From a bacterium (GTDB taxonomy: Bacteria > Electryoneota > Electryoneia > Electryoneales > Electryoneaceae), in contig OY769902.1 in NCBI GenBank assembly GCA_963669175.1, positions 1,664,001-1,728,000 on the forward strand: 64,000 bases of DNA. Reading direction: 5' to 3'. Below, piece by piece: positions 20,213 to 26,149 of this stretch (the first letter of the stretch is position 1; each line of letters begins with the position of its first letter). The translations under genes were made by a program, and so were the position numbers. The notes beneath the pieces were generated by a model. It did no database searches and was not told where the DNA came from. It was given only the letters and a program-made list of their open reading frames with translations.

Positions 20213-22380
<2,168 letters not shown>

Positions 22381-22386
22381 TCCTTT

Positions 22387-22760
22387 TGACTCACAGGATA
22401 ATAGGATAAAAGGATATCAAGGATGAACTGATGTAAAGCAGTAAAAAAAGTAAATAATGTAAAGAAGGCAAAGAAGGAAAGAAGGCAATAATGCTTTAGA
22501 AGGCAACAGCATACCATCATGGGTGCAGGATATCGGTTCTGCACCCTTTTTTTTGACTCACAGGATAACAGGATGCAAAGATATCAAGGAAGAACTGATG
22601 TAAAGCAGTAAAAGAAGTAAATAATGTAAAGAAGGCAAAGAAGGAAAGAAGGCAATAAAGCTTTAGAAGGCAACAGCATACCATCATGGGTGCAGGATTC
22701 CGGTTCTGCACCCTTTTTTTTTTGACTCACAGGATAACAGGATGCAAAGATATCAAGGAT
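22387..22760 (+). repeat. About 168-bp tandem duplication (2 units plus a partial third), each full unit ending in a terminator hairpin
   Basis: Units start TGACTCACAGGAT at 22387, 22554 and 22723; hairpin GGGTGCAG..CTGCACCC plus T-run; inverted copy of the unit start at 24553-24591. Confidence 0.9.
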
Positions 22761-23259
22761 GTGGTTTAATTAAGAATAATGTTGTTGTTTTCTGCAGCCT
22801 TTCACTTTAATTGTAGTTATAGTCGTTCCCGAAAGTCTTTACCGTTTCAGGTTGGTGGCAACAGCTTTCTGATACTGAACATCTTTCTTGTGAAAGGTCC
22901 GATTTTTCCCGATTGCACTCTTTCGAAAATTATTTGTATTAGCAGGCTTTAGCCTGCTCCTCTTAGACCCCCGGCTTTAGCCGGGGGAACAAGGACAACA
23001 ACGGATCGAGCGCCCTTCAGGGTGCTTTCCTGATCCTTTTGATTCGATGACGAAAAGCACGCTAAAGCGCGCTCATAGTTTTTGTTACTTCAATCCACCC
23101 GGCTAAAGCCGGGTGCTAAGCGGAGCCTGCTGAAGCAGGCTAATCGCTTTCGAATCAGCAATAACTTTCGAGTTCCTATGTTAAACGACAGGCGCATCAA
23201 GTCGTGTTGGAACTGCTATCTTAGCAGTATTCCATTTTTCCAACACAAGGAGAAGCGCC

Positions 23260-24321
23260 ATGTCGAAGAACCAAGTTATTGCAGCGGACCGTTCATTGTC
23301 TATAGGTCTGGATGTTGATTCGCAGACTTCTTTCGCCGTTGTGCTCGACACCCAGACTGGTGAAGTGCTCTTTGAGAATCGGATCAAGCATGACTCAGCC
23401 GCTTGGGAACGCTTCTTTGCCCGTTTTCCCAACTGCCGCATGTGGGCGTGTTATGAAGCGGGCCTCACCGGCTTTGGCCTCTGTCGTTACCTGATCGGCC
23501 AAGGTGTTGACTGCCAGATCGCGCCGCCCAGCCAAGTTCCCAAAGGGGCGCAAGCGAAGCAGCAGAAGACCGATCATCTGGATGCCCTTACCTTGGCCCA
23601 CATGTTCTGGACACCACCTCGTACCTGGGTACATGTCCCCACAGAACAGGAAGAGGCGGATCGTCAGTTGTCTCGCACCCGTGACCAGGTGATGAATGAT
23701 CGCGTTCGGGTCAAAAACCGAATCAAGAGTCTGCTATTGTTTCACGGTTTACAGTCACCGTTTCCGCCGCAACGCTATTGGACAAAGGAATACCGGCGCT
23801 GGTTGCGAACGTGTGATTGTCTGGCCGCGACACGGATAGCCATTGATGTTGCTCTCGATGAGCTGGAGGCCATTGAACAGCAACTCAAGGTGATCACCAA
23901 AGCGATCAAGGCGATGAATGCGTCCGCAACGTATCGGGACCGTACCCAGCGCCTGCGCCAGGTGAAGGGAGTGGGCGAGTTGACCGTGAACGCCTTCGTG
24001 ACCGAGATGTATCGTCCCGAACGCTTCGCATCCGGTAAGCAAGTCGGCGCACATCTTGGCTTGACGCCGTGTGAATGGTCAAGCGCCAACACACGCCATA
24101 TGGGACACATTACCCACTGGGGACCGTCCCATCTACGAAAACTATTGGTCGAAGCTGCGTGGCGTTGGGTGCAAAAAGATCCGTATGCAAAGAAGAAATA
24201 CGATGCGATCCATGCCGGGAAAACACGGAAAGTGGCGATCGTCGCCATGGCACGAAAACTAGCCGTGATACTGTGGGCCATGCTGGTCAAAGAACAAGAC
24301 TACAATCCTGCCTGCGTATAA
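23260..24321 (+). CDS. IS110-family DEDD transposase/recombinase
   Basis: GLDVD, YEAG, KTDHLDA (DEDD); VKGVG, GLTPCEWSS (catalytic Ser), LRKLLVEAAW, AIVAMARKLA. Confidence 0.95.
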   Translation: MSKNQVIAADRSLSIGLDVDSQTSFAVVLDTQTGEVLFENRIKHDSAAWERFFARFPNCRMWACYEAGLTGFGLCRYLIGQGVDCQIAPPSQVPKGAQAKQQKTDHLDALTLAHMFWTPPRTWVHVPTEQEEADRQLSRTRDQVMNDRVRVKNRIKSLLLFHGLQSPFPPQRYWTKEYRRWLRTCDCLAATRIAIDVALDELEAIEQQLKVITKAIKAMNASATYRDRTQRLRQVKGVGELTVNAFVTEMYRPERFASGKQVGAHLGLTPCEWSSANTRHMGHITHWGPSHLRKLLVEAAWRWVQKDPYAKKKYDAIHAGKTRKVAIVAMARKLAVILWAMLVKEQDYNPACV

Positions 24322-24541
24322 CCCCAGCACTGCTGGCAGGTAGGTAAAGCATAGATTGTGATTGAATCGTCCGATGCCATTGGGAACACGCGACCCTGGT
24401 AGTTATTCTGTTGCTTGACAACGATTCGAGTTTAGGGCGCCGCTGTTCCGTGCGAACAAAAAACTTGTGCCACGAGCACGAATAGCAGAACGGCACATGG
24501 GACGATACAAAGGCTCTTTACACCCTTGACTGTTTACATAG
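24322..24541 (+). ncRNA. Candidate bridge/seek RNA region of the IS110 element
   Basis: Long non-coding 3' end with stem potential (GCCGCTGTTCCGTGC...GCACGAATAGCAGAACGGC); function inferred from IS110/IS1111 biology. Confidence 0.5.
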
Positions 24542-24595
24542 CGGAACAACTATATCCTTTATATCCTTCTATCCTATTATCCTGTGAGTCATCTG

Positions 24596-26149
24596 TCAGG
24601 ACCTGCGGGCGTACTTGTTGGTCAACACCGCGATCATCAAGCCCAACGACATGAACCCCGCCACCGTCTCACAGAACACCGCGATCACCCCCGCATTACA
24701 CGCCGGATGAGTTGACCTCACGCCCAGGTTGGTGAAGATGTCAAACGAGATAAAGAAGTACTTCCAGAACCCGAGCAGTGTGTCTGGGAGCCTCTGGCCA
24801 GCCAGGTTGGGATCAACCAGGGTTTGCCCCGGTTCCATAACCAGTTGACTCAGGATGGGAATATGACTCAGGCAATCGACATACCAGTCCGGCATGAAGG
24901 TGAAGGGAGCATTCATAAAAATCCATGCGAACAATAAAATAATTCCAAGTCCCCAAAATGCCACCCGGGTCGCAGAATACCCGCAATTGGTAGTCAGGTT
25001 CCAGAACCAGTAGAATAGTGGTTGTTTCTGTTTGAAGGCCCGAAGAAACTGCTGGTCTTTGATGTAGCGGACAAGATCACCAGCTTCGGTTGTGTCGCAT
25101 TTATCAATGTCAACGCCCGTAAAATTTGTAAAAAACCAACGTTCCTGAAGTAATGGCTTCCACCATTCAATCGGAATCACATGAAATCGTTGCTTACGGG
25201 CTTTGAGCCACAATTTGCCTGAGAAATATATTGGGAAAAAATAGGTGGCTTGATCTGTATAAAGCTCTTGAGCAATCATATCACATCTGTGAACAAATGT
25301 TTGCAACCAGTCTATTTTCTTTAATAGTGAATACCACCAATCTCCCCAGCGTGGCACAAACCAGTTTTTTGCAAAAAGCGTGTTTTCTTGTTTTGAAGAG
25401 ATTTCTTCGTTCTCATTTTTCCGAATCTCACCAATTGTAGTAAAACTACAATTGGTGCGGAATAGAATTGCTTCCCACATCTTCGCTCCCTCGAGGTGCG
25501 CTTCCCTCATATCCGCTCCCTCGAGGTGCGCTTCCCTCATCTTCGCTCCTTCGAGGTTCGTCCAACTCATCTTCGCTCCATCGAGGTGCGCCCTGAACAT
25601 CTTCGCTCCCTCGAGGTGCGCCCTGAACATCTTCGCTCCCTCGAGGTGCGCTTCCCTCATATACGCACCCTCGAGGTGCGCCCACCTCATATCCGCTCCC
25701 TCGAGGTGCGCTTCCCCCATATACGCACCCTCGAGGTGCGCCCCACTCATATACGCTCCCTCGAGGTGTGCCCCACTCATAGAAGCTCCCTCGAGGTGCG
25801 CTTCCCTCATATACGCACCCTCGAGGTGCGCAAAGGGTATAGCTATCTTATCCAGCTTTCTTTTAGTCCAATCAATTCCCTTCAGGTCTAAAACGGGTAC
25901 CAAAAAGCTGTTGCGGTTCCAAGGATATTGATTTGTTCCTTTTGAATGGTCCACATCAAATTCATCACGCCACTTTTTCCCATTCAACAAGCAGTTGACC
26001 TTCCACATCCGTTTGGCGGCTTCTTCGTCGGTCTTAGCAGGTTCGTTTCCCTTGAGAATTCTGGCAATTTGGTCAGGCAGGTGTTCTGTATGCGGTTGTG
26101 TCCAGCGGTCTTGCCATTGTTGGATCTGTTTATCGGTTGGGACTGGCAT
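24596..26149 (-). CDS. Pentapeptide-repeat membrane protein with C-terminal two-TM K-channel-like domain
   Basis: 12 x AHLEGAxMxx; C-terminal TM-pore-TM (YFFISFDIFTNLGVRSTHP, ETVAGFMSLGLMIAVL). Confidence 0.85.
   Translation of the reverse strand: MPVPTDKQIQQWQDRWTQPHTEHLPDQIARILKGNEPAKTDEEAAKRMWKVNCLLNGKKWRDEFDVDHSKGTNQYPWNRNSFLVPVLDLKGIDWTKRKLDKIAIPFAHLEGAYMREAHLEGASMSGAHLEGAYMSGAHLEGAYMGEAHLEGADMRWAHLEGAYMREAHLEGAKMFRAHLEGAKMFRAHLDGAKMSWTNLEGAKMREAHLEGADMREAHLEGAKMWEAILFRTNCSFTTIGEIRKNENEEISSKQENTLFAKNWFVPRWGDWWYSLLKKIDWLQTFVHRCDMIAQELYTDQATYFFPIYFSGKLWLKARKQRFHVIPIEWWKPLLQERWFFTNFTGVDIDKCDTTEAGDLVRYIKDQQFLRAFKQKQPLFYWFWNLTTNCGYSATRVAFWGLGIILLFAWIFMNAPFTFMPDWYVDCLSHIPILSQLVMEPGQTLVDPNLAGQRLPDTLLGFWKYFFISFDIFTNLGVRSTHPACNAGVIAVFCETVAGFMSLGLMIAVLTNKYARRS
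25471..25830 (-). repeat. Coding 30-bp tandem repeat x12
   Basis: Near-identical CTTCCCTCATxxxCGCTCCCTCGAGGTGCG units in frame. Confidence 0.95.

Follow-up and report, generated by a model that had tools for sequence, protein, structure and literature searches.

How an IS110-family recombinase finds its insertion sites, and whether the sequences that guide it can be read from the element's own DNA, is the question raised by a locus in the window analyzed here, a stretch of 64,000 nucleotides (nt) from a bacterium of the phylum Electryoneota (assembly GCA_963669175.1, contig OY769902.1, positions 1,664,001 to 1,728,000 of the forward strand; all coordinates below are window positions). The locus is an insertion sequence (IS) at 23173-24542, in which the original prediction had seen an intact IS110/IS1111-like recombinase with a CG core, a junction promoter and a candidate bridge/seek RNA. 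The copy number, ends, core and target motif of this element, the conservation of its RNA and the covariation of its guides with the flanking DNA are established here. We regard it as highly probable that the locus carries an active member of the IS1111 type of IS110-family insertion sequences, with a three-way-junction guide RNA, a circular form and a junction promoter with a 17-bp spacer (N17). The general idea of an RNA-guided IS110/IS1111 recombinase with a target and donor deducible from its sequence was upheld, with a different core, junction and guide.

Twelve copies define the ends and the core

The element was found in 12 near-identical full copies (99.1-100% identity) in its own genome, a single 5.45-Mb contig, the window copy (23171-24544 with both cores) being one of them. 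The transposase frame was uninterrupted in 12/12 copies. Within the element only 14 alignment columns were variable among the 12 copies, and the non-coding end held just one of these, at 24465. The features of the window copy that bear on its ends are as follows.

23100-23170, + strand: left flank, the end of a family 1 repeat resembling repetitive extragenic palindromic (REP) sequences, with hairpins CCCGGCTAAAGCCGGG and AGCCTGCTGAAGCAGGCT
23167-23170, + strand: left target TTCG, within the left flank
23171-23172, + strand: left core AG, ahead of TTCC in 12/12 copies
23173-23259, + strand: left end and 5′ untranslated region, 87 nt, with the right donor TTCC... and the ribosome-binding site AAGGAG at 23247-23252
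23260-24321, + strand: transposase/recombinase gene, 353 amino acids (aa), an intact open reading frame (ORF) encoding a RuvC-like DEDD domain and the Ser275-bearing Tnp domain
24526-24542, + strand: right end, containing TTGACT, CTGTTTACATAG as the right sub-terminal inverted repeat, and a terminal C at 24542
24543-24554, + strand: right core GG and right target AACAACTATA, varying among copies and matching the continuation of empty repeats

Ends and core were set by aligning the 12 left and 12 right junctions along with unoccupied copies of the repeats in which the element sits. At the left junction, AG preceded TTCCTATG... (AG-TTCC) in all 12 copies; at the right junction, ...TTTACATAGC (CATAGC) was followed by GG in four copies and by AG in eight. 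The left core copy is thus invariably AG, and the right one follows the target. Beyond the right core lay a related but variable stretch of 10 nt, matching AAYARCTATR in 11/12 copies, and the 12 nt past CATAGC differed by locus while the element itself stayed constant. AAYARCTATR occurred 19 times genome-wide, 11 of them at right ends of the IS, which argues that the motif is not simply part of an overlooked repeat. The empty sites read AAAATCG-AG-AACAGCTATA in repeat family 2 and CTTTCG-GG-AACnnCTATA in family 1, with AG at the core position in 65 of the 71 readable empty family 2 copies. Taken together, junctions and empty sites place an AG/GG overlap at 23171-23172 and 24543-24544; with the core on both sides, the element comprises 23173-24542 (1,370 bp) plus a 2-nt core. 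Orientation and position within the shared motif were identical for 12/12 copies, with only the 2-nt core on both sides. Two convergent genes flank the window copy, which lies between their 3′ ends. Four public runs were available, all stored as contigs, which cannot show absence, starts or ends; in run X1, a collapsed repeat contig spanned 23170-24542 at a depth of 287 versus 18-23 for the unique flank contigs. No contig joined 24542 to 23171 or represented this locus in its empty state, which, in data of this type, speaks neither for nor against circles.

When the window copy is read by itself, both of its junctions can be taken to contain CG, and TGTTCC is complementary to GGAACA, which lies 3′ of the element in the window. 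The original prediction had been built from these features: a CG core, a circle junction CATAG-CG-AGTTCC, an 18-bp promoter spacer and TGTTCCG as the guide for CGGAACA. The multi-copy comparison refutes this model, to which we assign virtually no probability. Eight of the 12 copies carry CATAGC-AG, hence no CG at the right junction, and the family 2 empty sites (...TCG-AG-AAC...) could not arise from a CG core unless a base were lost. The 12 copies and the empty sites instead give AG as the donor core and AG or GG as the target core, and the apparent CG, as seen in one copy, combines the element's last base with the opening G of a GG target core. The junction accordingly becomes CATAGC-AG-TTCC and the spacer 17 bp, with one AG core. 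The motifs TTGACT (24526-24531), TATGTT (23177-23182) and TGTTCCG (24444-24450) do lie where they had been placed, and the last is taken up again with the RNA.

The sub-terminal inverted repeats that had been proposed are also present. They match CTATGTTAAACGACAG (23176-23191) with the reverse complement of CTGTTTACATAG (24530-24541) in the imperfect pattern CTATGT(T)AAAC(G)ACAG, beginning 3 nt and 1 nt in from the element ends, and a gapless repeat finder missed them because of the indel. Relatives share the AG-TTCCTAT left end with the element. Of the two non-coding regions, the one downstream of the gene is the longer, at 221 nt (24322-24542) versus 87 nt upstream (23173-23259). In the upstream region, an imperfect inverted repeat of 22 nt (23191-23212 with 23238-23259, 77%) would pair the ribosome-binding site and start codon of the transposase gene, and a terminator-like hairpin followed by a T-rich run was seen at 23212-23228; both may damp translation of, or read-through into, the gene. 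Sublineages of copies are marked by linked variants at 23826, 23956, 23967, 23970 and 23980, and a contig of run X3, a second sample of the same coded organism, carries the variant set 23956, 23967, 23970 and 23980.

Insertion sites in two repeat families

Ten of the 12 insertions fall in two repeat families and two lie outside them. Family 1 is a REP-like double hairpin, with 56 anchors of its 17-nt hairpin, three of them occupied; family 2 has a repeat unit of ~190 bp or more, with 87 anchors and seven occupied copies. The 70-nt left flank of the window copy recurs ~30 times in its own genome. As the ideal site we took the 16-nt sequence derived from the guides described below. The 12 reconstructed sites departed from this 16-mer by 2-5 mismatches (at most three in five sites, four in five sites and five in two), on a genome background of ~10.9 million positions of which 38 have at most three mismatches and 2,944 at most five. 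Within family 2, the occupied copies (n = 7) had 0, 1, 1, 2, 2, 2 and 2 mismatches in the right target, and at most two were found in 20 of the 71 readable empty copies (hypergeometric ~3e-4 by our own arithmetic). The seven occupied family 2 copies each lie in a different downstream flank.

These observations bear on whether the element still moves. That it no longer does, and that its 12 copies are relics spread by duplication or by recombination between repeats, would agree with the Ser-Ala variant of its catalytic motif and with the finding of no circle and no polymorphic empty site in contig data, in which, however, absence cannot be seen. We consider this improbable: the copies are at least 99.1% identical with intact frames and have a different flank each time, every one is inserted at exactly one position of the target motif, and the best-matching repeat copies are preferentially occupied. 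The element has probably been active recently.

Both repeat families end in a similar motif, CG-RG-AAC..CTATA. The family 2 target, read on the bottom strand as TATAGC-TG-TTC, resembles the predicted circle junction CATAGC-AG-TTC at 9/11 positions, which may reflect chance or repeats that end in IS-end-like sequence. Sequence from the right flank of the element (24554-24591) reappears in pieces at 22387-22766 of the window. The intergenic DNA upstream of the element also holds, at 22278-22711, a pair of short and nearly identical ORFs on the reverse strand (88 and 64 aa, each beginning MQNR.PAPMMVCCCLLK); this is probably another local repeat and not genes.

A conserved predicted RNA in the 3′ non-coding end

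Published IS1111-type elements have their non-coding region downstream, sub-terminal repeats, and a seekRNA in which the match to the top strand lies 5′ of the match to the bottom strand (PMC11187229). Bridge RNAs whose left and right target and donor guides share the core have also been defined, and for 93% of IS1111 elements they were predicted in the right end (PMC11208160); here and below, published work is cited for those portions of the papers drawn on. In the window, the corresponding RNA is predicted as follows.

24366-24506, + strand: predicted bridge/seek RNA core (covariance model, centroid fold, repeat pair I7, family pair counts)
24366-24372 with 24500-24506, + strand: P1, predicted helix
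24383-24387 with 24445-24449, + strand: P2a, GGAAC with GUUCC (centroid fold and covariance-model alignment)
24390-24397 with 24434-24440, + strand: P2b, predicted helix
24410-24422, + strand: hairpin GUUG-CUUGA-CAAC closing the target-binding loop (5 pairs, 4 compensatory, 94% paired in relatives)
24450-24466, + strand: J2/3, predicted junction strand
24467-24479, + strand: P3 hairpin, invariant in relatives

Relatives were taken from 68 loci, 57 of them supplied by a metagenome scan, giving 69 sequences with the window. RNAalifold on a MAFFT alignment of 38 sequences recovered the target-loop hairpin alone; since alignment across subfamilies was too poor, the structure was set by hand, with five helices and 28 pairs, and tried on a subset of 25 of the more distant relatives. 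With this structure, 83.9% of the cells were paired versus 30-51% with the partners slid. Changes on both sides were observed in 13/28 pairs, and the helices flanking the target loop were 94-96% paired among the 25 relatives. A covariance model (R1) built from these 25 relatives, leaving out both the window sequence and its closest relatives, matched the window at 24367-24495 over its full length (34.2 bits, E 2.3e-7), the sole match there, and the centroid fold of 24362-24510 gave the same helices. A search of Rfam over 22000-26000 at E up to 1 returned no match in the element and a chance-level match to an unrelated small RNA outside it.

This structure also bears on TGTTCCG, which the original prediction had put forward as the guide with the caveat that it might be part of a stem. 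The caveat proved right: GUUCC (24445-24449) pairs with GGAAC (24383-24387) in both the fold and the covariance-model alignment, so that TGTTCCG is the 3′ strand of P2a, and the guide that covaries in relatives lies ~40 nt upstream of it.

Guides covary with the flanks of relatives

Four stretches of the predicted RNA are assigned as guides for target and donor.

24400-24409, + strand: right target guide UAGUUAUUCU, located 5′ in the target-binding loop and complementary to AG-AATAACTA of the top strand
24425-24430, + strand: left target guide UUCGAG, located 3′ in the loop and aligning with the 'AAAG' positions of R1
24481-24488, + strand: left donor guide AAUAGCAG, identical in sense to right-end ...ATAGC followed by core AG
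24461-24464, + strand: candidate right donor guide AACU, weak, at the 3′ end of J2/3, complementary to core AG plus left-end TT

UUCGAG has the same sense as the left target plus core and would therefore pair with the bottom strand. The donor side was visible as a repeated sequence: in each of four same-phylum relatives (~47-48% aa identity), ATAGCAG was present twice, within the 3′ end and at the right end, and AG-TTCCTAT stood at the left end of all four. More broadly, ATAGC[AG]G was found twice, 40-130 nt apart, in 43/69 sequences; locus L014 also has the pair and was dropped by the filter for a third, chance copy. Several loci without ATAGC[AG]G repeat other 7-8-mers at similar spacing (ATAGGAA, ATAGGAGC, AATGGGAG and TTGGGCG), the second copies of which are putative ends.

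The target side was examined by comparing the RNA of each relative with its own flanks, the check across homologues that had been proposed with the original prediction, and the comparison bore the expected covariation out. A stretch complementary to the relative's own core and right flank was observed ~85-95 nt upstream of the first ATAGCAG, as exemplified by GCTATTCGCT for AG-CGAATAGC and CGAGACCCACCC for G-GGTGGGTCTCG. Measured per locus, the longest such run against the own right flank had a median of 9 nt and reached at least 9 nt in 18/35 distinct loci, versus 3.4% of 938 cross pairs. Past the hairpin, in the left target guide, identity extended at least 3 nt beyond the core in 13/24 loci, versus 3.6% of 498 cross pairs. 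Adjoining P3, some relatives have GAACU where the ends read AG-TTC and UAUCU where they read AG-ATA. The right donor guide was also sought as the longest complementary run, which gave scattered, inconsistent positions, the short match beside P3 alone being positionally consistent. Directly 3′ of AACU, the variable position 24465 is T in nine copies and C in three. Some relatives are broken: one G052 copy (L023/L025, G052:C16) has its gene split into frames of 230 and 150 aa, and the copy at L016 (G001:C209) has a TGA inside the match.

An alternative is that the recombinase protein alone recognizes the target motif, GAAC..CTATA at the repeat ends, the matches in the 3′ end being coincidental or structural only. 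The shortness of the left target guide (6 nt) and the right donor guide (4 nt) would fit such a protein, as would guide mismatches at most sites. In relatives with unrelated flanks, however, the same loop positions change to fit their own right and left flanks, which fixed protein specificity does not predict, and experiments on IS1111-type elements, as described in the portions cited, show the non-coding region to be essential and reprogrammable (PMC11187229). Recognition by protein alone is therefore very improbable in our assessment, and guidance by the RNA is retained as the preferred reading.

Junction promoter and proposed mechanism

The two halves of a promoter lie at opposite ends of the element.

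24526-24531, + strand: -35 half TTGACT, in the right end
23177-23182, + strand: -10 half TATGTT, in the left end

With a single AG core at the junction, their spacer would be 11 + 2 + 4 = 17 bp. Scanning the integrated copy for promoters revealed no sigma-70-like site within the element on the + strand. Of the 25 distinct relatives for which both ends were available, 21 have a junction promoter of the form TTGAC[AT]-N17/18-TAnnnT, 19 of them with 17-bp spacing, and four have none by the criteria used.

Putting these features together, we propose that the 353-aa recombinase would work with a ~140-nt three-way-junction RNA made from the 3′ non-coding end. One arm of this RNA would carry the internal loop, and the junction strands on either side of P3 would read the joined ends of the element, AAUAGCAG corresponding to the right end plus core and AACU to the core plus left end. 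The excised circle would join ...CATAGC-AG-TTCC... (in longer form ...TTGACTGTTTACATAGC-AG-TTCCTATGTT...), thereby creating the promoter TTGACT-N17-TATGTT, from which the recombinase gene and, through read-through, also the RNA would be expressed. Recombinase and RNA together would then insert the circle at sites like TTCG-AG-AATAACTA, found at the ends of two abundant repeat families.

The transposase

The original prediction had described intact DEDD and Ser motifs, and the sequence analysis of the 353-aa ORF confirmed them. The protein matched PF01548 (DEDD_Tnp_IS110; E 5.3e-18, residues 15-160), PF02371 (Transposase_20; E 8e-20, C-terminal Tnp domain) and NCBIfam NF033542, 'IS110 family RNA-guided transposase' (247.8 bits, cut-off 140). 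D18, E66, D105, D108 and S274/S275 were invariant in an alignment of four sequences, and we take D18, E66, D105 and D108 to be the catalytic residues. The C-terminal motif reads GLTPCEWSSA, with S275 aligned on the Ser of the 'SG' motif of ISCro4. In a phmmer search against solved structures, just the C-terminal domain (residues ~193-343) aligned to ISCro4/IS621 (E 3e-9). Run X4, a wetland metatranscriptome, contained two 151-nt contigs 95-99% like the transposase gene, within 23443-23783 of the window; they may be a weak hint of expression of a close relative, DNA carry-over being possible.

Several observations weigh against an active RNA-guided element and limit how far the evidence above carries. 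The catalytic motif has Ser-Ala where Ser-Gly is expected, the IS1111-type motif being described as SG, TG and occasionally TA (PMC11187229). At 9/12 sites there is at least one right-target mismatch, in eight of them A opposite C (guide A, site C); with mismatches at most natural sites, either the pairing must tolerate them or the guide has drifted. The 3′ end had been called structured, which folding energy by itself does not bear out: the full non-coding end (223 nt) folded no better than shuffles (z = -0.39), and the 149-nt core was marginal (z = -1.94, with 9/200 shuffles as good). The relatives (33-55% aa identity) are kin, so that their counts are not independent events, and 24% of the cross pairs reached 7 nt in a control inflated by G+C-rich flanks. 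The right donor guide is 4 nt long in the window, and none was seen in L015 or L035. Lastly, RNA production, protein binding, the circle and promoter activity are ascribed to the element by analogy with its family.

Relatedness and comparison with known systems

The element is an ordinary further member of the described IS110/IS1111 family. The recombinase had been announced as new, which holds for a member of the family; as a kind it is already covered by NF033542. Because the mechanism, RNA-guided recombination by IS110/IS1111 elements, has been an established one since 2024, no new question is opened here. The best plasmid-borne relative shared 34% aa identity, with ISEc45 at 30.8%, ISSso6 at 29.4% and IS5708 at 28.6%, and no plasmid-borne relative was found at 60% aa identity or above. 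Within the phylum, matches at E 1e-30 or better were found in 6/79 genomes, its own included, the nearest at 48%. A literature search coupling Calditrich with IS110 returned nothing on this element, judged by titles and the opening of abstracts.

Only tentatively do we suggest that the element and its metagenomic relatives form a deep IS1111-like clade with a fixed ATAGC-AG donor end, a three-way-junction RNA, a right guide of ~10 nt and minimal left and donor guides, the RNA staying unchanged across two unrelated repeat families with A-C mismatches tolerated. Should the predicted activity be real, programmable recombination would gain a compact new orthologue, and with it a natural data set on mismatch tolerance, made up of 12 hits among ~140 candidate repeat copies. 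For an unnamed IS from a phylum that has been little studied, the analysis supplies the exact ends, the core, the guides and the target, and it illustrates that multi-copy comparison corrects errors of single-copy reading. The occupied repeat copies (7/87 and 3/56) amount to a natural experiment on guide-target mismatch tolerance, and the element adds a further orthologue, together with ~40 related RNA-flank pairs, that can be screened as a programmable recombinase.

Among known systems, the element resembles ISPpu9 of Pseudomonas putida in having multiple copies in REP sequences and, as predicted here, a small RNA gene downstream of the transposase gene; it differs from ISPpu9 in host phylum and repeats, and the sequence is unrelated (PMC12288879, in the portion cited). 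With IS621 and ISCro4 of the IS110 group (Durrant et al. 2024, PMC11208160; PDB 8wt6, 9t56) it shares a 2-nt core in each pairing and two protein domains. Unlike in these elements, the RNA lies 3′ of the gene, the guide order within each loop is reversed and the core is AG where theirs is CT; the donor-reading strands would, in the modeled structure, stand at a three-way junction and not in a second simple internal loop.

The element also resembles the IS1111-type elements ISEc11, ISPa11, ISKpn4 and ISPst6 (Siddiquee et al. 2024, PMC11187229), which share with it a DEDD/Ser transposase of ~340-350 aa, a downstream non-coding region, sub-terminal inverted repeats, a circle-junction promoter (here predicted) and site-specific insertion, often in repeats. 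As in the seekRNAs of that type, the top-strand match lies 5′ of the bottom-strand match and the two overlap at the insertion point. The element differs from these named members in its target TTCG-AG-AATAACTA, its ends and its Ser-Ala in place of S/T-G, and fits the published descriptions of the IS1111 type, in the portions cited, throughout (PMC11187229, PMC11208160).

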